A stretch of 17,209 bases of DNA from an uncultured Candidatus Binatia bacterium (GTDB lineage: Bacteria > Desulfobacterota > Binatia > UBA9968 > JAJDTQ01), in assembly GCA_965215605.1 (NCBI GenBank), contig CBDCDX010000005.1, positions 1 to 17,209 of the forward strand. Reading direction: 5' to 3'. Made by a program: the position numbers and the translations under genes. Below the pieces are notes generated by a model, which was given only the letters and a program-made list of their open reading frames with translations, did not search any database and had not been told where the DNA came from. Shown piece after piece: positions 288 to 13,786 of the stretch; within the stretch, counting starts at the first letter, position 1; every line of letters starts with the position of its first letter.

Positions 288-336
288 GTCTTTGGAAAGA
301 CTTTGACTCGAACAATGACTTAAAGTAAATTAAGTC
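288..336 (+). promoter_or_regulatory. Putative sigma70 promoter of the NHLP precursor with two palindromic operator-like sites
   Basis: TTGACT (303-308), 17 nt, TAAATT (326-331). Inverted repeats GTCTTT-GG-AAAGAC (288-301) and GACTTAA-AGTAAA-TTAAGTC (317-336, overlapping the -10). AT-rich patch in GC-rich context. Confidence 0.6.
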
Positions 337-404
337 CAATGGGCGTGGAAAACGGCAGGACGTAATGTCGCTATGGCGATGTTCAGAGAATAGGGGGAAC
401 AGAC

Positions 405-665
405 ATGAGCACACAATCACAAATCGAGGCGCAGGTACTTGCCAGGGCTGACGAGGACGGAGAATTCCGCACCCGGCTCCTGAATGACCCGAAGGCAGCC
501 ATCAAGGAGGCAACCGGGCTTTCGGTTCCGGACGGCATCAATATTCATGTCGTTGAAGACAACGCCACCGACTATCACCTCGTCCTGCCACCGGCGGGCC
601 GCAACCTGTCGGATGAGGAAATCAGGGGCGTTGCCGGCGGGATTGGTGACATCAACACTTGGTGA
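405..665 (+). CDS. NHLP-leader (nitrile hydratase-like/proteusin) RiPP precursor, core IGDINTW
   Basis: Leader motifs ARADEDGEFRTRLLNDPKAAI, IHVVED, YHLVLP and double-glycine site LSDEEIRGVAGG; core at 642-662; purine-rich RBS AGGGGGA upstream. Confidence 0.93.
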   Translation: MSTQSQIEAQVLARADEDGEFRTRLLNDPKAAIKEATGLSVPDGINIHVVEDNATDYHLVLPPAGRNLSDEEIRGVAGGIGDINTW

Positions 666-769
666 GTATTGTCGGGTCTCCGGCAGTGATCTGCTGATTT
701 TCTGCCGGAGCCATTCTTCCTGCCAAGCAATGCCGTCGTGCCAATGTTCAGAGAACAGGGCGAACGGAC

Positions 770-960
770 ATGAACTCACCGTCACAGATCTAGGCACAGG
801 CGCTTGCCAGGGCCGACGAGGACGGAGAATTCCGCACCCGGCTCTGAATGACCCGAAGGCAGCCATCAAGGACGCAACCGGGCTTTCGGTTCGGGACGGC
901 ATCGCCATCCATGTCCTTGAAGACAGCGGTGCCATTCCCGAATTGTCGCGACTGAGTTGA
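770..960 (+). pseudogene. Degenerate duplicate of the NHLP precursor
   Basis: Nucleotide near-copy of 405-~562 plus its upstream RBS region (atgttcagagaa). GAG->TAG stop at 791-793, 1-nt deletion near 844 (ctcctgaat -> ctctgaat). Similarity is lost after GAAGAC, so there is no GG motif or core. Confidence 0.88.
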
Positions 961-1383
961 ACCGGGCATTGCACGCGATACTCTGTCCATGCCGACCGGG
1001 TCCGACCGGCCTGGAGTCTGCACCATTTCCTTTCGGGTGAGTTGCCGTCTCTTCCAGCGGGACTTCCATCCGCCAGCGCTGCCGGTCATGGGTGCACGCC
1101 AATTTTGGGTCAGGCTGCGGCCATCCGTTGGGCCGCTGGTCATCCCTGATTTGTCGTCAGAGCCGAAATCGGCATTGACATGCTCCGGATGCCGAACTCG
1201 AGATCGGAATCGACATTTTGAGCATCACATGTGTCGGCATTATTCCCATGCTGCCCGGTCCCAGACTTCCGGGTCTGGTCGATGCCTCCTATGTCAGACT
1301 GCAGATTTTGTCCACACTGAACCGCCCTGTACCAGGTCCGGCAATGGCGCGAATGCGCCAACTCGACCGTCCAGAGGCAGGTT

Positions 1384-2898
1384 ATGCACAATAGGAAAAT
1401 CAGGAAACTCGTGATCGCCGGCGGTGGGACTGCCGGATGGATGGCTGCGGCAATGTTTGCCCGGCAGCTCCGCGAAACCCTGGACATTGCCCTGGTCGAA
1501 TCCGACGAGATCGGTACTGTCGGGGTGGGTGAAGCAACGATTCCACCGCTGCGACTTTTTCACGAATACATGGATGTCAGGGAGACTGATTTCCTGCGGG
1601 CTGTACAGGGCACCTTCAAGCTTGGAATTTCGTTCGAGAACTGGCGGGACCTGGGCGAAGACTACTTCCATTCCTTCGGGTGGGTCGGCAGGGAGCGCTG
1701 GACCGCCGGCTTTCAACATTACTGGCTGAGGGGCCATTTGCTGGGCCTGGCCCGGGATTATGGCGACTATTGTCCGGAAACAACGGCGTCGCTGCGCAAC
1801 CGCTTTGCAATCAGCCTGCACAACGTTCTGAACTACGCCTATCATATTGATGCCGGACTGTACGGACAATTCCTGCGAGGTATTGCCGAGGAGCTTGGCG
1901 TTGTCCGGCATGAAGGACGAATTGAGCAGGTGGAACAGGATCCGACCAGTGGATTCATAACCGGTCTGCGCCTGCAATCCGGGCAACTCGTCACCGGGGA
2001 CCTGTTCATCGACTGCACTGGCTTTCGCGGGCTCCTGATCGGGCAAACCCTCGACGTCGGCTTCGATGATTATGGCGACTGGTTGCCCTGTGACCGCGCA
2101 ATCGCGGTGCCAACCGAATCGTCGGGAGCCGCGCAACCATATACCCGCTCGATAGCCCATGAAGCGGGGTGGCAATGGCGCATTCCGCTGCAGCACCGGG
2201 TCGGGAACGGCATGGTGTTCTCCTCCCGGCACTGGTCCGACGACGAGGCAAGGGCGCGGCTGCTCGACAATGTGCAGGGTCGGGTGCTTGGAGAGCCGCG
2301 GCTGATCCGTTTCAGAGCCGGCCAGAGGCACAGGTACTGGCACAAGAACTGCGTTGCCATGGGACTGGCATCCGGTTTCATCGAACCGCTCGAATCGACC
2401 AGCATCCACCTCATTCAGCGTGGCATCACCCGCTTGGTCCAGATGTTCCCCGATAACGGAATTCGCGAAGCCGGGATCGCAGAGTTCAATTCCCACATGC
2501 AGCTTGAAATCGACAATATCCGGGATTTCATCATCCTGCACTACCATGTGACCAACCGCTCGGATACGCCGTTCTGGCGGCAGTGCCGGACCATGAACAT
2601 TCCCGACTCCCTCGAACACCGGATCAAGTTGTTTCGTCAAACGGGCCGGATAGCGTGGAACCAGGCGGAACTATTCGGCACCACGTCATGGGCACAGGTC
2701 ATGCTGGGTCAGGGTCTGATTCCGGAACAGTATCACCCGATTGCCAATGCGATGAGCGACGAGGAACTGGGGCAATATCTGGCCGACATCCACGAAAATG
2801 TCGACAAGCAGGTGAACGAGTTTCCGGACCACCAGCAATTCATTGACGATTACTGCAAGGCACAACCGCCCGAATTCCAGGACCTGCCGACGTCATGA
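1384..2898 (+). CDS. Flavin-dependent halogenase, tryptophan halogenase (PrnA/RebH) family
   Basis: 504 aa. FAD motif GGGTAGW, GVGEATIP, catalytic Lys context QGTFKLGISFENW, FIDCTGF, WQWRIP (WxWxIP), FIEPLESTSI. Confidence 0.96.
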   Translation: MHNRKIRKLVIAGGGTAGWMAAAMFARQLRETLDIALVESDEIGTVGVGEATIPPLRLFHEYMDVRETDFLRAVQGTFKLGISFENWRDLGEDYFHSFGWVGRERWTAGFQHYWLRGHLLGLARDYGDYCPETTASLRNRFAISLHNVLNYAYHIDAGLYGQFLRGIAEELGVVRHEGRIEQVEQDPTSGFITGLRLQSGQLVTGDLFIDCTGFRGLLIGQTLDVGFDDYGDWLPCDRAIAVPTESSGAAQPYTRSIAHEAGWQWRIPLQHRVGNGMVFSSRHWSDDEARARLLDNVQGRVLGEPRLIRFRAGQRHRYWHKNCVAMGLASGFIEPLESTSIHLIQRGITRLVQMFPDNGIREAGIAEFNSHMQLEIDNIRDFIILHYHVTNRSDTPFWRQCRTMNIPDSLEHRIKLFRQTGRIAWNQAELFGTTSWAQVMLGQGLIPEQYHPIANAMSDEELGQYLADIHENVDKQVNEFPDHQQFIDDYCKAQPPEFQDLPTS

Positions 2899-3881
2899 TG
2901 TGGCAGCGGGATTTGCCGCCGGATTGGCCTTGCGCCAGACAGTTTGACAGGGCCAGTGCCATGAGAACGCTGCCATTGTTTCCCAATACGCCGTTTGTTG
3001 TTTCGGAAAGTGCCTTCGTGAATCCGAGATACCGGGGGTTCCGGCTGCCATGCCACGGTGATGGGGCCGATCATTCGGAGATGCTCGTTGTCAAGCCGAT
3101 CCGCGTTCACGATGCGCGCGCCCTCGAACCGGCCGCCACCATCGGGCGCATGGGGTTCGAGCTGGTGCATGCGCCGATCGATATCGATTACGGCAATCAG
3201 GACGATGTCGTTTCCCGGTTCTACGACCAGTGCGCGGAGCTGGTCATGGCGGCAACCGGATGCCTTTGTGCACGGACCATGCAGCACGAGTTTCGCACCG
3301 GTGTGCCAATTTCGCCCAACGGCGCCGGAACCTATGCGGAGACGCCCCACTCGGATCTGACTCCCTATGTCGAGGATGTGCTCGACATACCTGATGGCCA
3401 TCACTTCGGCGTCTACACTGTCTGGCGCAGCATAGACCCCCTGCAGGCAATCGAGTCAAAACCCCTTGCCTTGTGCGACCATTCGACCATCTCGGCCGAT
3501 GACATGATCAGTTCCGATGGATGGCGCCTGACTGAGCCGGGCACCCGCGTGGTATTGTACCGCCTTGTTCATGACATGGCCCAGAGCTGGCATTACTTTC
3601 CACGAATGGAGCCGAACGAGGCGATGATCTTCAGGCAATACGATTCCCGCATCAAGGATCTGGCCTCCCGGGTCACCTTTCACACCGCCTTCAACGATCC
3701 GACGACACGGGAGGATGCGCCAAGGCGGCGTTCTGTCGAAGCCCGCGTGGTCGCGGTCTTTGCCGAAGAAGATCCGACAGGCCGAAAATCAAGATACCAA
3801 GCCGAAATTCCAACGATGTATCCGGATGGCAGAACGTCATCCTGGCGCCACGAGAAGATGCTTGACTGGGGCGTGGATTGA
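2895..3881 (+). CDS. CmcJ/NvfI-family Fe(II)/2-oxoglutarate-dependent oxygenase
   Basis: Motifs GFELV, HSD (HxD), VWRSI...PLALCD, WHYFPRMEPNEAMIFRQYDS, FHTAFNDP (distal His), RRSVEAR. ATGA overlap with the halogenase stop; alternative start ATG at 2961. Confidence 0.8.
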   Translation: MMWQRDLPPDWPCARQFDRASAMRTLPLFPNTPFVVSESAFVNPRYRGFRLPCHGDGADHSEMLVVKPIRVHDARALEPAATIGRMGFELVHAPIDIDYGNQDDVVSRFYDQCAELVMAATGCLCARTMQHEFRTGVPISPNGAGTYAETPHSDLTPYVEDVLDIPDGHHFGVYTVWRSIDPLQAIESKPLALCDHSTISADDMISSDGWRLTEPGTRVVLYRLVHDMAQSWHYFPRMEPNEAMIFRQYDSRIKDLASRVTFHTAFNDPTTREDAPRRRSVEARVVAVFAEEDPTGRKSRYQAEIPTMYPDGRTSSWRHEKMLDWGVD

Positions 3882-4173
3882 ACGGAACCTCTGCCGCGTC
3901 GTCTGCGAAGGCTGTGGCGGCGTGATCTACACGCGGGTAGGGCGAGGGAACGGCGCCGGCATCTCTGCGGCCGGCGCCTACGAGGTCGGCGCCCGTTGAG
4001 ACAGTAGATCGCACGCCGGTCAAACGCACGGCAAGGAGAGGCAACGGGAAGCTTGTATGCTCGACCTCAAGGCACCCTTTGCTGGGCTACGCGTACCCCA
4101 GGGGCGCCTGTTTCAGTCCCCCGGACAATCCACAGTTCATCGCAACGGCCGGTGGTGCGATGGTTGCGGGCGC

Positions 4174-4799
4174 TTACACGGACAAGCCAAAAAACCAGTC
4201 CCGTCTGAGTGGAATGAAGTTATCGACGGCTCTTCCAAGCTCGTACCCGGAGGCGGGAGAAGCCGCGAATACCCTTTTGCCCGATTTCTTGACGGTTTCG
4301 ACTGCTGGTACGAAATCCCCATCTGCCGAGAGAAGATACGCTACATCGTATTGTCCGTCGTGCGCCATTGTAACCATGTCTACGGCGATTGAAACATCGA
4401 CCCGCTTCTCGGTGTACTGAGGGACGGACATTTTGCACAAGGCTTCAAGTTCGACGAGAATTGACCCACGGAGATCGGACTTATGGGCTGCGACTACGTC
4501 CTTTAGCCTCCCGATCAATGGATTGTCGTTCGGGGGACCATCCTGCGCTCGATTCGGCCCTTGAAAACCTCTACGCCTTGGCTCTGGATCCTGTTCAGAA
4601 ACTTTTGTTGAGATGAGCGCCGGGAGAGATTGCCGGAAACCTGTCCGACATAGTATCGGATACCGGCCAGTTGCCGATTCATAACGAGTTTCTCGGCCAA
4701 TTTCTGATAGTCGAGTTCTCCCGTGGCGATCCCGATGTTCTTGGCGGCATGGTAAAAGTTGCTTCCGTCGATGAAGAGGACCGCGCGTTCTGGTGCCAT
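4174..4799 (-). pseudogene. NYN-domain (LabA/DUF88, PIN-like) RNase split by a 1-nt frameshift
   Basis: N-half 4515-4799 has FIDGSNFY and IRYY. C-half 4174-4518 has EKRVDVSIAVDM, LLSADGDFVPAV and GKRV. One extra base in the G5 run at 4532-4536 joins them as MVPPNDNPLIGRLK, so this may be a sequencing error. Confidence 0.88.
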
Positions 4800-4808
4800 A
4801 AGGAACTC

Positions 4809-4853
4809 AAAAAAAACCCCCGGGGGCCGTTTCCGGCTCGATCCCGGGGGGGG
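4809..4853 (-). terminator. GC-rich intrinsic terminator hairpin in the 5' leader of the NYN gene
   Basis: Minus strand: CCCCCGGG-ATCGA-GCCG-GAAA-CGGC-C-CCCGGGGG followed by T8, ending 9 nt before the NYN ATG. Confidence 0.8.
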
Positions 4854-4873
4854 TTAGCAAGCTAGTCGGGCGG

Positions 4874-4902
4874 ATTTTACCTTTGCCGCCACCGCATGTC
4901 AA
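4874..4902 (-). promoter_or_regulatory. Near-consensus sigma70 promoter for the leader RNA/NYN gene
   Basis: Minus strand TTGACA (4902-4897), 17 nt, TAAAAT (4879-4874). Confidence 0.85.
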
Positions 4903-5013
4903 GCGGCTTGCCTGAGACGGCTTTTCTTTGCTCGCCGTTCAGCCGCTTGGACGTGTCTGTCCGAAACACCGCCCCTCAGCTTCCGCCAATCCGCGCTCGC
5001 GCTCCTTCTCTGG

Positions 5014-5331
5014 TCATGCGATCCCTGGACCGACACCCTTTCCTGGAACGCTCGCCTTGGTCGGCAGATGACGTATCTCGGCGCCGGTCTCCCTGTCGGC
5101 CTGCACCAAGTCGTACTGGGTCTGAAGGTTGAGCCAGAACTGAGGGTCGCTGCCGAACCAGTGACCTAAGCGTAACGCGGTGTCGCCCGTGACCGAACGC
5201 TTGCCGGCGACAATCTGGCTAACCCGGTTTGGGGGGACGTCGATCTGCCGCGCGAATTCCGTCGGAGTGATCCCCAACTCTTCCAACTCGCCTTTCAAGA
5301 CCTCGCCGGGATGGACAGCTCTCATGAACAT
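5014..5331 (-). CDS. higA: HigA-family antitoxin (XRE HTH), orphan
   Basis: VHPGEVL...VPPNRVSQIVAGKRSVTGDTALRLGHWFGSDPQFWLNLQTQYDL; strong RBS AAGGAGGAGG. Confidence 0.92.
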   Translation of the reverse strand: MFMRAVHPGEVLKGELEELGITPTEFARQIDVPPNRVSQIVAGKRSVTGDTALRLGHWFGSDPQFWLNLQTQYDLVQADRETGAEIRHLPTKASVPGKGVGPGIA

Positions 5332-5719
5332 GCGGTCCTCCTCCTTGTCATCGGTGGTAGTCTGGTCTTACCCGGTCCCGGGCCTTGCTTTACCAATCCT
5401 TCACTGGAAGGTACGCTGCATGCTGCTCATCAACAACCAGGAAGTCGAAGAGCAGACCGACATAAAGGTTCGTCTCAAGGCGCGCTGGAGATGGATTTTG
5501 GGGACTTCGCGCACAACGACGCCGTTTGCCGGCCCCGGCCGTGGGTGTGGCTACCGTGCGAGCGGCCGGATGACCATCAACGTTGGACACCATGGAGCCA
5601 GCCATACCATCGGCTCGTTCGCCATCCGCATGAAGTCGGACTTGGTCCATTGGGCTCGGCGACATCGAGGAGGAGTATTGCATGGAGCCTGGCCACTGAG
5701 GCGGGCTCATCAGCCATTC

Positions 5720-5747
5720 TTGACAGTCGCGGGCGGCGGCTTACACT
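5720..5747 (+). promoter_or_regulatory. Putative sigma70 promoter of hicAB
   Basis: TTGACA (5720-5725), 16 nt, TACACT (5742-5747), 8 nt upstream of the hicA ATG. Confidence 0.65.
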
Positions 5748-5755
5748 AGGAGTAG

Positions 5756-5968
5756 ATGAACGGGCGGCAGTTCATCACCAGGGTCCGCCAATGGGCAAGG
5801 GCCCGGAATTTGGAGATTCGCTTCGTGGTGTCGGAAGGGCCGGGATCGCACGGAACGCTCTACGCGGGAGATCGGAAGACGAGCGTCAAGGATCGAAAGA
5901 AGGAGATCGGCAAGGGACTGCTCGCCAAGATGCTTGCCGACCTCGGGATCGACAGGGACGAATTCTAG
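5756..5968 (+). CDS. hicA: HicA-family mRNA interferase toxin
   Basis: 70 aa basic protein with GPGSH motif and C-terminal EIGKGLLAKMLADLGI; directly upstream of a HicB-like gene. Confidence 0.85.
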   Translation: MNGRQFITRVRQWARARNLEIRFVVSEGPGSHGTLYAGDRKTSVKDRKKEIGKGLLAKMLADLGIDRDEF

Positions 5969-6010
5969 TGGGTGAGTACTGGAGCTGCCCGAATCTGGAG
6001 AACTGAGCCG

Positions 6011-6448
6011 ATGTCTGACACATACAACTATCCCGCCGAGATCGAGCGCGACCAGGACGGCCGTTATGTCGTCGCGTTTCCGGATTTCGGGTGGGGCGCA
6101 ACGGACGGCGCGACTCGCGACGAGGCGCTGGTCGAAGCCCGTGACCTGCTTCGAGAGTTGATCGCGGCTACGATGCGTGAGGGTAGGGACCTGCCGAAGC
6201 CATCGCGCGCGACTAGGCGTCGGCCGATTGTTGTTCCCCCGGTGCCGATTGCGCTGAAGGCGGCCCTCTACGAGGCGTTCCGTAAGGCTGGCATGTCGCA
6301 AAGCCGTCTCGCCCACGACCTCAATGTTGCCGAGAGCGAGGTGCGGCGCATGCTGAATCCGGATCATGTCACGAAGGCAGCCACCATCGACCGCGCATTG
6401 CGCCGGTTGGGGAAGCGTGTGAGCGTGACAGTCGGCGAGGCCGCGTGA
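6011..6448 (+). CDS. hicB: HicB-family antitoxin with C-terminal HTH
   Basis: YPAEIERDQDGRYVVAFPDF...TDGATRDEALVEARDLL...GRDLPKPS, then HTH MSQSRLAHDLNVAESEVRRMLNP. ATG 6011 preferred over 5972. Confidence 0.92.
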   Translation: MSDTYNYPAEIERDQDGRYVVAFPDFGWGATDGATRDEALVEARDLLRELIAATMREGRDLPKPSRATRRRPIVVPPVPIALKAALYEAFRKAGMSQSRLAHDLNVAESEVRRMLNPDHVTKAATIDRALRRLGKRVSVTVGEAA

Positions 6449-6620
6449 TCTGCTTTCGGTGATCTCACCCGCTGTGGTTGTCCGCAAGAAATTGGGGATT
6501 CGTGCATATCAGGTCATCTTGTGTTCTGTTGATGAATACGGTGTCTGGCCCGTCAATAATCCAAAAGGGGACTTGAAATCGAACTTTATGACTGATGCTA
6601 TCCCATCCGCTCTACACCCC

Positions 6621-7493: not shown

Positions 7494-7916
7494 ATGGACA
7501 CCGTCCCCGCCGAACGCCGATCGGAAATCATGTCGCGCGTCCGCAGTCGCGACACGCGCCCCGAGATGACCGTCCGCCGACAAGTCCACCGGCTTGGCTA
7601 TCGATACCGCCTTCACGGCAAGCGCCTGCCGGGACGGCCGGATCTCGTGTTCGCGAGCCGTCGTAGCGTCATCTTCGTCCATGGCTGCTTTTGGCACCGA
7701 CATCCGGGCTGCGGCCTCGCACGAACACCCAAATCCCGGGTCGTGTTTTGGCGCACGAAGCTCGACCGGAATCGTGAGCGCGATCTTGGCAACCAAGGGG
7801 AACTTCGTCGCATGGGCTGGCATTTTCTGGTGGTATGGGAGTGCGAGTTGCATGACCTCGAATCCGTCACGAAGCGGGTCGTGTGCTTCCTTGAGGATCG
7901 CCGTGAAGTCGGTTGA
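7494..7916 (+). CDS. vsr: Very-short-patch repair endonuclease
   Basis: MDTVPAERRSEIMSRVRSRDTRPE, LPGRPDLVF, IFVHGCFWHRH, FW..KLDRNRERD, GWHFLVVWECEL. Confidence 0.97.
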   Translation: MDTVPAERRSEIMSRVRSRDTRPEMTVRRQVHRLGYRYRLHGKRLPGRPDLVFASRRSVIFVHGCFWHRHPGCGLARTPKSRVVFWRTKLDRNRERDLGNQGELRRMGWHFLVVWECELHDLESVTKRVVCFLEDRREVG

Positions 7917-9144
7917 ACTGTTCGCCGGGGCGGGAGGGCTGGCGATGGGCGTCGCACGGGCGGGTTTCCAACATCTTGGGATCGTCGAGGCCGATCAATG
8001 GTGTTGCGAAACCATCAACCACAACCGCCTGCGGCGGGTTTCACCCGTCGCCGATTGGCCCACCGTTACGCCCACGGACGTCAAGAAGTGCGGGTTCGAC
8101 GGGTTTCCGAGCGACATCGCCCTCGTTTCCGGCGGCCCTCCCTGTCAGCCGTTCTCGCTAGGCGGCAAGCACCGCGGCCACGCCGACGCCAGGAATCTGT
8201 TCCCCGACCTTGTTCGAGCGGTACGGGTTCTCCGCCCTCGCGCGGTCATTGTCGAGAACGTGAAGGGCCTGCTACGAAAGTCCTTTGACCCCTACTTCAA
8301 GTACATACTTCTCACGTTGACCTACCCCACATTGGTGCAACGCGCCGGCGAGGACTGGCGCGCTCACATGGCCCGCCTCGAACGGCACCACACGTCGGGC
8401 GGCGAGTTGGAGTACCGAGTCGACTTCGACGTCCTGAACGCTGCCGACCACGGTGTTCCTCAGCACCGCGAACGCGTGTTTATCGTCGCGTTCCGCGCCG
8501 ACCTGGGCGTCCAATGGTCGTTTCACGATGATCTTCCCAGCACCCACAGTCCGGATAGGTTGCTTTGGGATCAATGGGTCACCGGGGAATACTGGGATCG
8601 GCACCGGATTCCCTCTACCAAACGACCCCCCGCACCTTCGCCACGTTACGCGCGTTTGAAGGCTCTTTCGTGTTCCCTTAATCCACCGCGCAGCGAACCT
8701 TGGGTGACGGTCCGGGATGCGATTTCCGACCTTCCAGACTCGGGCTCGGAAGAGGCCCGCACCGTTCTCAACCATCGTTTCAACTCCGGTGCCAGGAGCT
8801 ATCCCGGGCATACCGGCAGTCCATGGGACCGACCCGCGAAAACGCTCAAGGCTGGCGACCATGGAGTTCCAGGCGGTGAGAACACCCTTCGGCATCCGAA
8901 CGGCCGCGTCCGATATTTCACCGTCAGGGAAGCGGCTCGCCTGCAGACCTTCCCGGATCGCTTCGAGTTTCACGGCTCTTGGACTGAGACCATGAGGCAA
9001 CTTGGGAACGCCGTGCCCGTCCAACTCTCTTTCAATGTCGCCGAGAGCGTGGCGGCGGCGTTGCGGCGGGTTGGATCACGCCCGCCGGACATACTAGGGA
9101 GGGCAACCAAGTCTCACAAGTCAGCGAGGAAGTCCATGGCCTAA
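7903..9144 (+). CDS. DNA (cytosine-5) methyltransferase
   Basis: GTG start at 7903 with GAGGA RBS, overlapping the vsr end. Motifs ELFAGAGG (I), GGPPCQPFS (IV), ENVKGL (VI), PQHRERVFIV (VIII), REAARLQTFPD (IX), QLGNAVP (X). Confidence 0.96.
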   Translation: MKSVELFAGAGGLAMGVARAGFQHLGIVEADQWCCETINHNRLRRVSPVADWPTVTPTDVKKCGFDGFPSDIALVSGGPPCQPFSLGGKHRGHADARNLFPDLVRAVRVLRPRAVIVENVKGLLRKSFDPYFKYILLTLTYPTLVQRAGEDWRAHMARLERHHTSGGELEYRVDFDVLNAADHGVPQHRERVFIVAFRADLGVQWSFHDDLPSTHSPDRLLWDQWVTGEYWDRHRIPSTKRPPAPSPRYARLKALSCSLNPPRSEPWVTVRDAISDLPDSGSEEARTVLNHRFNSGARSYPGHTGSPWDRPAKTLKAGDHGVPGGENTLRHPNGRVRYFTVREAARLQTFPDRFEFHGSWTETMRQLGNAVPVQLSFNVAESVAAALRRVGSRPPDILGRATKSHKSARKSMA

Positions 9145-9201
9145 CGTCCATTTTCTAACCCCAGGTCAGAAAAACAATCTTACAGTTTTGGAGCCTCACT
9201 C

Positions 9202-11517
9202 ATGGCAACTAACGAACTGGACCTCACCCCCGACCCGAGGATCCTGAAGATGCTGGGCGAGATCGACCTCCACCAGTGGCGGTGTTTCGCCGAACTCATC
9301 GACAACTCCATTGACGGGTTCCTTCACGCGACTCGCGCCGGTGATCCGATAGAGCACGCCGAGATCGCCGTCACCATCCCGACGGCCGACGCCGACACGG
9401 TGCGAGTCGTGGTTAAAGACAACGGACCCGGGATGTCAATTGAGACGCTCGAAAACGCGGTCAAGGCGGGATGGTCCGGCAATGACCCGCTGAGTAACCT
9501 CGGGTTGTTCGGGATGGGCTTCAACATCGCAACAGCTCGTCTTGGTCTCGTGACCGAGGTTAGGACCACTCGCGCGGGCGACCCCGAGTATGTGGGTGTC
9601 CGCATAGACTTGGACGAGCTGCGAGCGACTCGGAATTTCAGGGTTCCGCGGCGGACCCTCCCGAAGCCAGACCACGCCGATCACGGTACCGAGATTGTCA
9701 TTTCGCGCTTGAAGCCCGACCAGCGTAGGTATCTTTCGCGTTCGAACAACCGCACGACGATCCGCAAACACCTGGCGCGGACGTATTCTTCGCTGCTCGT
9801 CGATTCGGTTGCCGGCGGGATCAAGCTCACTCTCAATGGCACTCGTGTCTCGCCGCGACGCCACTGCGTGTGGGACGGGTCGCGTTCCGTCGAATTGCCG
9901 GACAGAACCAAGGTCGAGGCGGTTCAGTGTATCAACGTGCCGCTCGCGCCTCGACGCTATTGCACTTATTGCATGCGCACACTGACGAACAACGAAGAGA
10001 CCTGCCCCACCGCGAGTTCAAGCTGCAATGTCGAGGAGGCCTCGAGGCAAATAACGGGCTGGGTCGGGATCCAAAGATACCTGCACAACACGGAGTTCGG
10101 GATCGACTTCGTTCGAAACGGTCGCAAGATCGAAATCGCAAACAAGGATTTGTTCGTTTGGAGCGATGGTGACACCGCGGAGGTCGAGTACCCCATCGAC
10201 GACCCACGCAACCGCGGCCGCTTTGTCGGCGAGATACATATCGATCATTGCAGAGTCAGCTATACCAAGGATCGGTTTGAGCGCGATGATCCGTCATGGA
10301 GCGAAATGGTCCGGGTGGTTCGGGGAGATGGGCCTCTTCGTCCAGTCGTGGCAGGTCAACGCGGCTACGAGGGCAATGAAAGTCCCCTGTTCCAACTCTT
10401 TCAGGCCTTTCGGCGGTCCAGCCCGCAGGGCAAGAACGGCTTGTGGTCAAGGGTTTTGGTGGTCAAGGACAACGATCGCGCGCAACAAATGGCCGACGCT
10501 TTCGCGAACGAAGACCCCGAATACTTGACCGACCAGCGATGGTGGGATCTCATCGAGGAACAGGACAAGGAGCTCCTCCGCGACACTGACCCGGGCGCTC
10601 CATCCGTGATTCCGGGCGGTTTCCTGGATGACCCCGACGACGAACCCGGAGGCGGCGAAACCGACCCACCGGAACCTCCACCCCCACCGCCGCATCCTCC
10701 CCGGCGCGCATTGCACGAGCTGACCAGGAAGTACGTGCACCCGACGTTTCGCGTCGAGTACGACATCCAGGCGTTCGCGGTTCAACGCAACGATTCTGAG
10801 TTGGTCGCGGGCGTGCCATGGGTGTTTCAACTGGACGATGTGGCCACGCGGACCTACGCGTTATTGGTGGACTTGGAGAACGAGGTGTTTCGCTCGACCA
10901 CCATGACGCCACTCGACGGCTTGTTGGCGGAACTCGCTCATAGGACTGTTGACTTTCTCAAAGGACAAGCCCAGGACGTTACCCTCGCGGGCGTGCTCGC
11001 GGACTTTCGCAAACAGTACTGTGTCGACACGCGCCTTGACCCCCAGGAGATCATCGCGTTCGCGACCGCAGTGCTGGACGAGATCGGTCGCGCCATACCC
11101 GACCTCCTCGCACCGGGACAAGGTGTCGAGCTTTACGCCGAACTCACGGAGGCCGAGAGGAACGCCGTCGCGCAACGAATGGCCAACCGAAACGTGGGAA
11201 ACCCCAATGAGACCATAGCCGACGGACGCTTCTGGGCATACGCCGAGTTCCAGTCCCTGAGAGGGCTATTCACGCGTCATCCCGAGCTGTTTCTCGATGG
11301 AAAGTACTGGGAGGACGCCTACGAGACGCTAGACTACGGGACCCCCCGGGTCACCGCCGATGCGAGAGTGAGTGTGGTCTCGCGATACGACGCGTATCTG
11401 GGCGACGCCGTCTGGATCGCAAATCAGACACCAGCGGATCTCGAAAGTACGAGCCGTGACACCATCATTCGCGCAACTTGTTCCCTGCGGCTATTGGGAT
11501 CCGACGTGGCCGGCTAA
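9202..11517 (+). CDS. GHKL (MORC/MutL-like, HATPase_c_3) ATPase with large C-terminal region
   Basis: 771 aa. AELIDNSIDG, DNGPGM, LGLFGMGF, HGTEIVI; S5-like GIDFVRNGRKI...GRFVGEIHID; CxxC...C...C insert; acidic/Pro-rich linker. Confidence 0.9.
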   Translation: MATNELDLTPDPRILKMLGEIDLHQWRCFAELIDNSIDGFLHATRAGDPIEHAEIAVTIPTADADTVRVVVKDNGPGMSIETLENAVKAGWSGNDPLSNLGLFGMGFNIATARLGLVTEVRTTRAGDPEYVGVRIDLDELRATRNFRVPRRTLPKPDHADHGTEIVISRLKPDQRRYLSRSNNRTTIRKHLARTYSSLLVDSVAGGIKLTLNGTRVSPRRHCVWDGSRSVELPDRTKVEAVQCINVPLAPRRYCTYCMRTLTNNEETCPTASSSCNVEEASRQITGWVGIQRYLHNTEFGIDFVRNGRKIEIANKDLFVWSDGDTAEVEYPIDDPRNRGRFVGEIHIDHCRVSYTKDRFERDDPSWSEMVRVVRGDGPLRPVVAGQRGYEGNESPLFQLFQAFRRSSPQGKNGLWSRVLVVKDNDRAQQMADAFANEDPEYLTDQRWWDLIEEQDKELLRDTDPGAPSVIPGGFLDDPDDEPGGGETDPPEPPPPPPHPPRRALHELTRKYVHPTFRVEYDIQAFAVQRNDSELVAGVPWVFQLDDVATRTYALLVDLENEVFRSTTMTPLDGLLAELAHRTVDFLKGQAQDVTLAGVLADFRKQYCVDTRLDPQEIIAFATAVLDEIGRAIPDLLAPGQGVELYAELTEAERNAVAQRMANRNVGNPNETIADGRFWAYAEFQSLRGLFTRHPELFLDGKYWEDAYETLDYGTPRVTADARVSVVSRYDAYLGDAVWIANQTPADLESTSRDTIIRATCSLRLLGSDVAG

Positions 11518-13192
11518 ATGCGGGAGCCCTTCCTCGATACGCGTCGACTTCTGAGAGGTCCTTGGCAAGCGTTCGAACGCGACGTCGCACGCCTCCTCGT
11601 TTACAACGGTTTTGACGACGTCCGCGTTGTGGGCGGTGCCGGCGACCGGGGAGCCGATGTCCTCGGCGTCAAGAAGGGCGAGCTTTGGGTCATCCAGTGC
11701 AAGTACACATCGTGCGGCTACCCGCCTCCTTCAGCCGTTAACGAGGTCGGGGAGGCCGCCCGATTCTACGGAGCCGATCGGATCTTCGTGGCATCGTCCC
11801 GACCTATCGGCCCCGGCACTCGAGACGCGATACAACGCTGGCGCGCCCTGGGAATGAAGATTGAAACCTTACAACCCAACACCCTTTTGGATATTGTGGC
11901 ACGCAGCCCCGAATATCCTCCGTGCCGCCGCGATCTCAGAGACTATCAGGAGGACGCGGTGGCCAATTTCGTGGCTGCACTCCGAGAGACTGGACGCGGT
12001 CAAGTCGTCCTGGCCACGGGTCTTGGCAAGACGGTGGTCCTCGCGGAAGCGGTGGCGCAGCTATTCCGTGACGAAGCCGTCCGTCACGGTCGAGCGCTTG
12101 TGCTCGCCGGCACGAGAGAGCTCGTCGACCAACTGCACCGTGCCTTTTGGGACCAGATCCCGAAATGGATAGCAACCCACGGTTTGATCGGCGGCGAGAC
12201 GCCGTCCCACTGGGATGGTATTACCTTCGCCACCGTGCAAAGCGTGGCTTCGCGCATCGACGAGCTTCCCGAATTCGGAGTTGTTCTCATAGATGAGGCG
12301 CACCACGTAGGCTCGGAAACGTTCAGACGTGTCACTGACCATCTATCCAGCGCAATGATTGGTGGAGTCACCGCCACCCCGTGGCGCGGTGATCGCTACG
12401 ACATCGACTATCTCCTAGGCCCGCCCGTGATTAGGATAGGCATTGCTGAGGGACTTCGACGGGGTTTCCTCTGCGAGGCCGACTACCGCATGCTGGTCGA
12501 CAATATAGACTGGGAGTTGGTCAGGTCCCGCTCGCGCAACAGCTATTCCATCTCCCAGTTGAATACACTGCTGCTCCTCCCGACTCGGGACGAAGAGGCG
12601 GCCAAAACAGTCCGAGAGACCTTCGATACCGATAAACGCCGCGCGGCCATCGCCTTTTGCTCGTCCATCACACATGCGAAGAGCTTCGCCGCCACGTTAC
12701 GCCTTTTCGGTTTTCGGGCCCGATCGATCACCAGCGACATGGAGGCAAGAGAGCGTGATCAAACCATGGCTTCCTTTCGAAGGGGTACGTTGGAGGTCGT
12801 GACGACGCGCGATTTGTTCAATGAGGGCGTCGACGTTCCCGACGTTGACATGATTGTGTTTATGCGGGTTACACATAGTCGGCGGATTTTTGTGCAACAA
12901 CTCGGTCGGGGACTCCGAGTGACTCCCAGAAAGGACAAGGTGATTGTGCTGGACTTTGTCAGTGATCTCCGACGCATCGCGGAGGTGATAGAGCTGGAAA
13001 AAGCGTCCCGCAGCGACATTGAGAGGCTCCGTATTCCAGGAATCATACAGTTCCGAGACGAGGGCGCTGGCAGCTTTATGCTTGACTGGATGCGAGATCA
13101 AGCAGATCTATTCAACCGTGAGGGGGACCCGCATCTCGAACTTCCCGTCTTCGGGGTACCGCCGCCGGAGCAACAAGGGTTCGATGCAATGA
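11518..13192 (+). CDS. Mrr-like restriction endonuclease fused to SF2 (ResIII/DEAH) helicase
   Basis: N-terminal WQAFERDVARLL...GDRGADV...IQCKY. Helicase motifs LATGLGKT, IDEAHH, GVTATP, LFNEGVDVP, QQLGRGLR. TAAATG coupling to the ATPase gene. The ORF track runs to 13569, but the real end is probably TGA 13190-13192 after a 1-nt indel near 13178. Confidence 0.9.
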
Positions 13193-13786
13193 TGCGTCTC
13201 GGTGAATGCTGTCGCGACGAGATTAAGACTCGACTCTGGGCCACGGCGGGGCACCCTCGGTACTGGTCAACGTTGTCGGACTTCCTGCGGTTCGCCGCGA
13301 ACTACTATGGGGTCTGGACACGCGACTCGGGCATTGCCGGCCAACTTGGCCGAGCTTCATGGATCCAAGGGCAAGGTACGAGCGGCCGATCAAGGCTACA
13401 CCCGCAACAAGCTTCTTCGAACGGCCGCGGAGTGTCGCTTCAACGACGAAGATCTCAACGAGCAGGCGTCTTTTGTGGCTCCGAGAGAACAGGACCAACG
13501 TGCAGCCGGCTACGGCAAACCACATGGTCGAGCGGTCCGGTCGGATCGCTTTGCAGAATCGTATGCTGAGCAACAGAGCGCTGCTGCCCTTGGCGAGTTG
13601 ATCCGTACATGACGGCATTTGAACGCCAGGCTCACGCCCAACCGGGACCCGAGCGCCCCCTGCTCCGTTCACCCTGGAGGTCGAGCGCCGCCCGCTGAGC
13701 GTCTATGCGGAGCACCGGTGTCAGCTTGTCAGGGCCGAGGCAGGCAAGCGCTTGGCGAATTCAGAAACTCGGCATGGCGGGAGTAA
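13189..13786 (+). pseudogene. Multiply frameshifted hypothetical gene coupled to the helicase
   Basis: Protein-like blocks in alternating frames: RDEIKTRLWATA, WSTLSD, YYGVWTRDSGIAGQLG, FMDPR, YGKPHGR, MTAFER, AWRE* (TAA 13784-13786). ATGA overlap at 13189-13192. Confidence 0.55.

Follow-up and report, generated by a model that had tools for sequence, protein, structure and literature searches.

The window analysed here, a stretch of 17,209 nt, carries on its minus strand a compact unit made of a promoter, a predicted small RNA and a gene for an NYN-domain nuclease. The -35 hexamer TTGACA (4902-4897), at which the homology to genus relatives begins, and the -10 hexamer TAAAAT (4879-4874) are separated by a 17-nt spacer and together match the consensus at 11 of 12 positions, as expected of a near-consensus promoter of the sigma-70 type; in the 3 kb that were scanned, 2 promoter-like sites reached at least 9/12, with 0.9 expected from shuffles. 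The promoter is followed by a predicted small RNA, or 5' leader, of about 55-60 nt (4809-4867, minus strand), which scores 74.3 bits with the covariance model R1 described below and whose 5' end (~4867) and 3' end are placed from the promoter and from the U-tract, respectively. Within it, the motif CUAAC (4857-4853) overlaps a run of eight C (4853-4846), and the single-stranded 5' flank CUAAC-CC (4857-4851) is near-invariant among the NYN-linked copies. A two-part GC hairpin (4850-4817), supported by RNAfold and by comparison, comes next and consists of an 8-bp outer stem, in which CCCCCGGG (4850-4843) pairs with CCCGGGGG (4824-4817), an internal loop with AUCGA (4842-4838) facing a single C (4825), and an inner hairpin GCCG-GAAA-CGGC (4837-4826). 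The outer stem runs directly into a U8 tract (4816-4809), which completes the shape of a putative intrinsic terminator, that is, a GC stem followed at once by a U-run; a U-rich tail is also present in the relatives. Nine nucleotides (4808-4800) then lead to the NYN start codon, an ATG at 4799, and no Shine-Dalgarno motif was found before it. A sequence-only reading of this DNA had described the promoter, the parts of the hairpin, the U8 tract, the 9-nt gap and the want of a clear Shine-Dalgarno motif, and every one of these details is correct.

The NYN gene itself is interrupted in the window. Its N-terminal piece (4799-4515, minus strand; 94 codons, then a premature stop past the frameshift) covers PF01936 positions 1-64 and shows 94% identity with the intact orthologue (residues 1-90); the C-terminal piece, in the shifted frame (4518-4174, minus strand), covers positions 72-144 and is 90% identical to residues 79-208. 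The two pieces score 32.2 and 58.7 bits against PF01936 (gathering cut-off 24.2), and an intact relative (L070) scores 82.5 bits. The break lies at a C5 run (4536-4532, minus strand) that is C6 in the intact relatives, which read ...MVPPNDNPLIG... across this site, so that a 1-nt deletion leads to the frameshift. Read contigs of near relatives from runs X1 and X3, which differ from the window at 4-5 further positions, contain the additional C, and the C5 form of the window is matched by a single X3 contig of depth 3 that shows no differences; because of this contig, the deletion is probably real in a minor strain rather than an assembly error. Another relative (L071) carries a separate frameshift close to the 3' end of NYN. 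With its NYN gene broken, the module is probably non-functional in this window: judged from the sequence, the nuclease is inactivated while the promoter and the RNA are intact.

In the relatives, the nuclease looks functional. An AF2 model of the protein reached a pLDDT of 88.4, and its best Foldseek matches were VPA0982 (2qip) and the NYN domain of MARF1 (5yaa, 6fdl), with E = 9e-9 to 1e-4 and target TM-scores of 0.67-0.77; 2qip was the sole sequence-profile match as well. Five acidic residues (D11, D135, D141, D160 and D162) are invariant in 16 sequences, and some of them presumably bind metal. The fold is the same as that of the NYN proteins of known structure (2qip, MARF1), with a helical insertion of ~45 residues (roughly residues 88-125 in the model) that belongs to this subfamily. 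For these solved NYN proteins we know of no RNA partner encoded upstream. The protein subfamily comprises 158 clusters at E ≤ 1e-10 in a set of 5.8 billion proteins, and tblastn of the intact orthologue against plasmid and phage collections returned no match.

The window makes up the whole of contig C6, which has a GC content of 60.5%, and the main contig of the 4.06-Mb assembly has 65.9%. Upstream of NYN on the minus strand lies a gene for a HigA-family antitoxin (5331-5014; TIGR02607). No HigB-like frame was found anywhere on contig C6, and both higA paralogues on contig C1 adjoin a HigB-like frame. A HicA-like and HicB-like pair beyond higA was recognised by eye (no family match), and further neighbours include vsr, a C5 methylase, a GHKL ATPase and an Mrr-helicase; the toxin-antitoxin and restriction-type surroundings attributed to the locus from sequence alone are therefore found. 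A relative (G021) has the same hicA-higA-NYN context with an intact NYN of 208 aa and, immediately ahead of the -35 box, ~410 bases that the window does not have, from which we conclude that the window lost them and retained TTGACA. Taken together, the orphan higA, the 410-nt deletion and the NYN frameshift make the locus look as if it were decaying.

Comparison with other genomes shows that the unit is conserved as a whole. In four genus relatives, the stretch that aligns with the window begins exactly at the -35 box (4902) and ends at the NYN stop (4179), with 84-90% identity and different flanks; identity is 97% for a fifth relative (G021) and 71% for a sixth. A back-translated search recovered 27 loci. 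In 19 of them the NYN is close (45-95% identical in the C-terminal piece), and all 19 have the hairpin, the U-tract and the 5' flank just upstream of NYN, a presence that was noted before any covariance model existed; the GC hairpin and U-run showed already in the translated frame ahead of the start. The case made from the sequence alone had been staked on a conserved leader in homologues, and that leader is there. The DNA before each of the 19 genes follows the pattern CUAAC-C8-GGG ... CCCGGGGG-U5-8, and according to their record titles the loci belong to Binatia, Gammaproteobacteria, Nitrospirales, Azotimanducaceae, Pseudomonadales, Arenicellales, Dehalococcoidia, Myxococcota, Thermodesulfobacteriota and others. 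At the 8 distant or partial NYN loci among the 27, the element is absent. Several of the element-bearing records have sponge-associated names.

At different loci the unit has unrelated neighbours (MTHFR, hydantoinase, AIR synthase, GST, amidase, methylases, transposases, a Panacea-domain antitoxin), and across the loci no conserved protein partner or antitoxin candidate was found beside it, in agreement with the earlier suggestion of an RNase that has no protein antitoxin. The unit thus appears to be a self-contained, horizontally spread single-gene module. Since promoter, RNA and nuclease gene travel together across phyla, the RNA probably restrains or partners the nuclease. In the window, the hairpin lies 163 nt past the higA stop on the same strand, which would suit an ordinary terminator of higA behind a chance promoter-like match. 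This explanation is hardly credible, because the hairpin has its own -35 box, conserved together with it, and because elsewhere the unit stands behind other genes, among them those for MTHFR, hydantoinase, AIR-synthase and transposase; the hairpin cannot be solely the terminator of higA, and the alternative that the sequence-only reading had named against itself falls away. Indeed, a promoter of at least 9/12 lies within 100 nt upstream of 25 of the 26 NYN-proximal elements (close relatives counted), 19 of the 26 having an exact TTGACA, and the same holds at the 9/12 level for 20/22 copies of the RNA that stand without NYN (hereafter orphan copies). Moreover, 19 of 23 NYN starts have no Shine-Dalgarno motif; the lineage of G069 and G083 has GGAGG before its NYN start.

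The hairpin of the window folds at -27.3 kcal/mol (RNAfold), a value that is not unusual for its composition (z = -1.45; 18/200 shuffles equally stable). Because this single-sequence energy is unremarkable, the case for a non-chance structure rests on comparison and not on energetics. We built the covariance model R1 from a 23-sequence alignment that included 17 of the 19 close loci, and it scores 52-76 bits at these 19 loci. The structure was then evaluated on a 52-sequence alignment fitted to R1, with 47 distinct rows and many kin: 94.9% of the cells are paired, 7 of the 12 pairs show changes on both sides and none of 500 shuffles was as good, counts that overstate independence, given how many close kin the sequences include and that several of them went into R1. 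When the pairing partner was slid as a control, pairing fell to 40-67%, and a MAFFT alignment gave 93.1% paired cells and 4 pairs with double changes (0/500 shuffles). The outer stem hardly varies, so the covariation comes mostly from the 4-bp inner stem and from one or two outer pairs. A covarying structure upstream of NYN homologues, which had been proposed as a check, is thus borne out by the inner stem. The Rfam search proposed with it was fruitless: Rfam 15 gave no match in window positions 3500-6500 (E up to 1) or at 5 related loci (E up to 0.1).

The alignment also speaks to the level at which the element acts. Fourteen U-G wobble cells are consistent with a sense RNA only, and R1 reaches just 12-14 bits on the reverse strand. 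Both findings argue against a DNA-level element, such as a recombination or insertion site or a repeat marking the end of a mobile NYN cassette, even though such an element would account for the many unrelated contexts, some of them near transposases and methylases, and for the sharp start and stop of the homology to relatives. The orientation of the element and its distances to promoter, U-tract and ATG are fixed, a 4-Mb genome holds just 2 copies and an unsystematic look revealed no flanking repeats, and we therefore consider a DNA-level role very improbable.

Conservation of the RNA goes beyond its shape. Over 120 locus pairs, the 5' flank, the outer stem and the start of the U-run are 93% identical, compared with 59% for the NYN coding DNA and 58% for the inner loop and hairpin of the same pairs. 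A terminator requires a GC stem and not a particular sequence. An identity of 93% in this core exceeds what a terminator needs, which argues that something reads the sequence; its natural reader, we infer, is NYN itself. The sequence-only reading had instead pointed to the internal loop as exceeding the needs of a plain terminator, an argument that is weak because no other part is conserved so little; conservation is concentrated in the 5' flank and the outer stem.

The element is also specific to this NYN subfamily. A terminator-like hairpin precedes 18/19 genes of the subfamily versus 1/28 canonical PF01936 genes from a sample of the same phylum, using a detector that covers -150 to +15 of the domain start and has a background of 0.055 per 165 nt. 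R1 matched none of 8 distant NYN loci (the other NYN genes of the genus and two viral-contig loci). The element is rare, and matches outside the R1 set point the same way: an exact-pattern search of metagenomes gave 3 loci, all 3 with an NYN of this subfamily downstream, G069 and G083 have one R1 match each, followed by NYN, and the second NYN paralogue of G065 has an R1 match too. As a control, we picked 49 terminators from viral contigs that share the outer stem and U-run; at E up to 0.01, R1 had 20 matches among them, all at 31 bits or less.

Copies of the RNA are also found apart from NYN. The 4-Mb genome of the window has only 2, the one in the window and one at C1:2352068-2352132, which begins ~10 nt past the stop of an etfA-like gene and has its own promoter (TTGACA-18-TAAATA) and a small extra 5' hairpin. 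This second copy is without NYN; a conserved ORF of 75 aa, of no known family, lies ~200 nt downstream. Of 27 further genomes from the genus, 24 have the R1 element, in most cases one copy that is syntenic, has its own promoter and stands apart from any NYN; an NYN of the subfamily is present in only 5 of the same 27 genomes. In 33 genomes from the other families of the order, R1 found no copy. Genomes G061-G064 have one copy each, before NYN, and G065 (Poriferihabitaceae) has five: three tandem promoter-RNA units precede one NYN, a fourth copy lies before a second NYN paralogue and the fifth after that paralogue, ahead of an epimerase-like gene.

The conservation of orphans in genomes that have no NYN could reflect a function of the RNA that is unrelated to NYN. 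The RNA might thus be an independent sRNA, for example a seed plus terminator with a C-rich CUAACCC tail, that has its own targets and behind which NYN merely rides. The genus orphan would fit, being single and syntenic (between the etfA-like gene and the small ORF), with a conserved promoter and an extra 5' hairpin, and so would the G065 copy before the epimerase gene. However, outside the genus all the copies examined adjoin an NYN of the subfamily, with one G065 copy as the exception, the 33 genomes of the order's other families have none, and the orphans keep the 5' motif less strictly than the NYN-linked copies do. We hold an independent sRNA to be unlikely.

A more serious competitor is an attenuator that acts in cis only. 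Promoter-terminator-gene order is a signature of attenuation and of RNA-controlled toxins of type III and AbiF type, and an insulated cassette would place its terminator ahead of the promoter. The terminator and the start without Shine-Dalgarno motif would then keep a harmful nuclease low, with no role for the RNA in trans; feedback is conceivable too, by NYN cleaving or binding its own leader. The order of promoter, terminator and gene agrees with this, and so do the lack of a Shine-Dalgarno motif, the closeness of the hairpin to the ATG, its textbook terminator shape and the absence of repeats. Such an attenuator leaves unexplained, however, why the 5' flank and outer stem keep 93% identity across phyla, why three tandem units precede one gene when only the last could attenuate it, and why promoter-bearing copies without NYN occur in 24/27 other genus genomes. 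Cis-only attenuation is therefore possible and, on balance, somewhat unlikely: the sequence constraint, the tandem RNA units and the promoter-bearing orphans together favour an RNA that acts in trans.

Between the -10 box and CUAAC, the leader spans 5-40 nt (one locus excepted); its sequence is unrelated between lineages, and in several units it is only 5-7 nt long, so that the RNA would begin almost at CUAAC; by inspection, this leaves little room for an aptamer. Inspection revealed no alternative pairing that would serve as antiterminator, and by eye no pairing was seen between the CUAACCC tail and the NYN start region. Pairing of the 5' leader with the region just before the AUG was considered and dropped, being inconsistent in other lineages by eye. 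Contigs from RNA libraries (X20, X21; relatives of the window) bridge the hairpin and the NYN coding sequence at 4687-4843, 4751-4845 and 4751-4858; they are of partial cover, possibly derive from DNA and give no RNA ends, strand or level, and are a weak hint compatible with read-through. In read contigs of the runs that cover the locus best, summed depth is 267-415 at the hairpin, ~15-20 in the unique flanks and 121-142 in the most conserved NYN segment. The depth of the hairpin, far above that of the flanks, indicates that many organisms in the sample share the element.

Type III systems (ToxIN, CptIN, TenpIN) show the same order of an RNA gene, a terminator and an endoribonuclease gene behind one promoter, have no protein antitoxin, and use the terminator to set the RNA:toxin ratio; the present unit would resemble them in this layout. 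Type III antitoxins are, however, arrays of short tandem repeats that the toxin processes, and Tandem Repeats Finder (minimum score 30) found no array in 4100-5400, where there is a single hairpin unit. Where the RNA is multiplied, in G065, the copies are separate promoter-terminator units, unlike type III repeat arrays. The toxins differ in fold as well, since ToxN/AbiQ, CptN and TenpN are set against a nuclease that is NYN/PIN-like by Pfam, PADLOC and fold.

The closer parallel is AbiF/RCd22 from a Clostridioides difficile prophage. There, transcription is reported to end mostly at the terminator, while the RNA also binds the protein directly and so neutralises it in trans; RCd22 is an experimentally supported precedent for the combination of a cis terminator with trans binding (bioRxiv 10.1101/2025.04.15.648962). 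The two share one sigma-A/sigma-70 promoter, a repeat-free structured RNA, a Rho-independent terminator and then a promoterless toxin gene. They differ in that the toxin of AbiF/RCd22 belongs to the Abi_2/AbiD/F family and the protein of the window is an NYN, that the RCd22 RNA as described is 88-132 nt long with two abiF motifs and a separate terminator whereas here the terminator hairpin itself is conserved, at about half the size, and that abiF has a ribosome-binding site whereas most NYN starts here have no Shine-Dalgarno motif. Neither the abiF RNA motif (no Rfam match) nor an Abi_2 protein (the protein is an NYN) was found at the locus, so that only the layout is shared. With no repeats, a different toxin fold and no abiF or other Rfam match, the module is a member of neither type III nor AbiF systems, although it would work like both. 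The earlier label of a type III-like module therefore stands for the layout, which is closer to that of AbiF/RCd22, and fails for the tandem repeats and the ToxN-like fold; overall, the RNA-antitoxin interpretation is partly supported.

On the protein side, the nearest described candidate is HEC-09. The intact orthologue matches the PADLOC HEC-09 profile PDLC04163 with E = 8.8e-24 and 82.3 bits, a profile that has no curated cut-off, and the match is partial, in two stretches of which the best covers protein residues 122-184. In the accessible portion of its description, HEC-09 is an NYN candidate embedded in Hma systems that failed to protect E. coli from the phages tried, and that portion mentions no leader RNA (Payne et al., bioRxiv 10.1101/2024.01.29.577857). 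This want of phage defence in a related candidate weighs against the reading that we favour below. Within the limits of this portion, both proteins are stand-alone NYNs of ~200 aa with a MARF1 NYN-like fold. The literature that we searched held no description of an RNA partner of NYN. NYN/PIN-like nucleases normally have protein antitoxins or no partner, and only few toxin families are known to have an RNA antitoxin that targets the protein.

In this setting we favour, with confidence that is evenly balanced, a control of NYN in two steps. A near-consensus sigma-70 promoter would drive an RNA of ~50-60 nt made of a CUAAC-CCC tail, the two-part GC hairpin and the U-tract. In the first step, in cis, the hairpin and U-tract would form an intrinsic terminator, 9 nt ahead of an NYN gene without Shine-Dalgarno motif, so that a presumably toxic nuclease would be made only from rare read-through and by poor initiation. 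In the second step, in trans, the terminated RNA would accumulate and, being abundant, serve as the specific partner of NYN, to which it would bind most likely as an inhibitor or pseudo-substrate. The terminator would thus throttle NYN at the level of transcription, and the RNA itself would hold the protein.

A broader reading, which we put forward more tentatively and consider possible rather than probable, is that these modules form a new RNA-protein class of toxin-antitoxin or defence system in which a ~50-nt RNA inhibits NYN. Under this broader reading, the terminator-hairpin RNA with its CUAACCC tail would be a sequence-specific inhibitor (pseudo-substrate) of a stand-alone NYN RNase, and the chromosomal orphan RNA genes would make the cell immune to incoming modules. 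Other NYN lineages may also follow the promoter-hairpin-NYN logic, with hairpins unrelated to this one. The support for such recurrence is one viral-contig NYN (L098; 34% identity), which has an unrelated hairpin and U-run ~18 nt before its ATG and whose search for relatives returned only itself.

Our results add an unannotated RNA family to uncultured bacterial genomes. The module joins a one-gene nuclease to a compact conserved RNA, and the question of how the two interact is directly testable in E. coli, where the CUAAC tail, the sequence of the outer stem and the covarying inner stem are available as mutational targets, and where the tandem RNA copies, the orphan RNAs and the broken nuclease offer natural variants for comparison. 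Control by such an RNA could also explain why cloned NYN candidates of the HEC-09 type look inert.

The genes around the NYN module in the window include a HigA-family antitoxin gene (5014-5331, minus strand; TIGR02607). No HigB-like frame was found anywhere on the whole contig, and the gene looks like an orphan antitoxin. Two 85% identical paralogues are present on the main contig of the same genome (C1), and each of them is adjoined by a HigB-like frame. Divergently oriented from higA, a HicA-like ORF of 70 aa (5756-5968, plus strand) and a HicB-like ORF of 158 aa (5972-6448, plus strand) follow a promoter-like site, TTGACA-16-TACACT (5720-5747). This pair was recognised by eye only, as neither ORF has a clear counterpart in Pfam, NCBIfam or PADLOC. 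Further along, a restriction-type island (7494-13569, plus strand) carries vsr, a C5 cytosine methylase, a GHKL ATPase of 771 aa, whose match to BbrUII/HgiDII is faint, and a protein of 683 aa combining an Mrr-nuclease and a helicase, which matches a type IV methyl-directed enzyme in PADLOC.

Comparison with C1 revealed about 96% identity between window 303-3877 and C1:237771-234586, a stretch that encodes a tryptophan halogenase and an oxidoreductase of the CmcJ/NvfI family, and further parts of the contig match C1 around 343-347 kb. These matches make the contig one of three things: a mosaic, a duplicated region or a strain variant. Moreover, window 13277-13750 shows about 74.5% identity to four places on C1 and is a dispersed repeat, which is possibly IS-related.

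Hairpins also precede NYN genes in other genomes. On a viral contig (L098, 1451-1500), a 10-bp hairpin with a U-run lies about 18 nt upstream of the ATG of an NYN gene whose product is 34% identical, and a clear Shine-Dalgarno motif is missing before this start; the layout thus repeats that of the window with a hairpin of unrelated sequence. A thaumarchaeal NYN relative (L033, 1-210) has a perfect 10-bp hairpin of about 24 nt in two copies upstream of its start, and this might be a different leader. At L071 (1-666), a YacP-like NYN gene (PF05991) lies immediately upstream of an NYN module, the NYN of which bears a separate frameshift close to its 3' end.

The leader RNA has a conserved single-stranded 5' tail, CUAACCC (window 4851-4857, minus strand), complementary to GGGTTAG, a sequence that the animal telomere repeat contains in one of its registers. 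As only a 7-mer is involved, this complementarity is very likely a coincidence. The records of several relatives carry sponge-associated names.

The second copy of the leader RNA, an orphan without NYN (C1:2352068-2352132, minus strand), has orthologues at L048-L069, and in this set of copies a conserved inverted repeat, CCGTA-N5-TACGG, encloses the -10 region. Across the genus, conservation extends over the whole intergenic stretch as far as an ORF of 75 aa (MKSLTLLDV...) that belongs to no known family.
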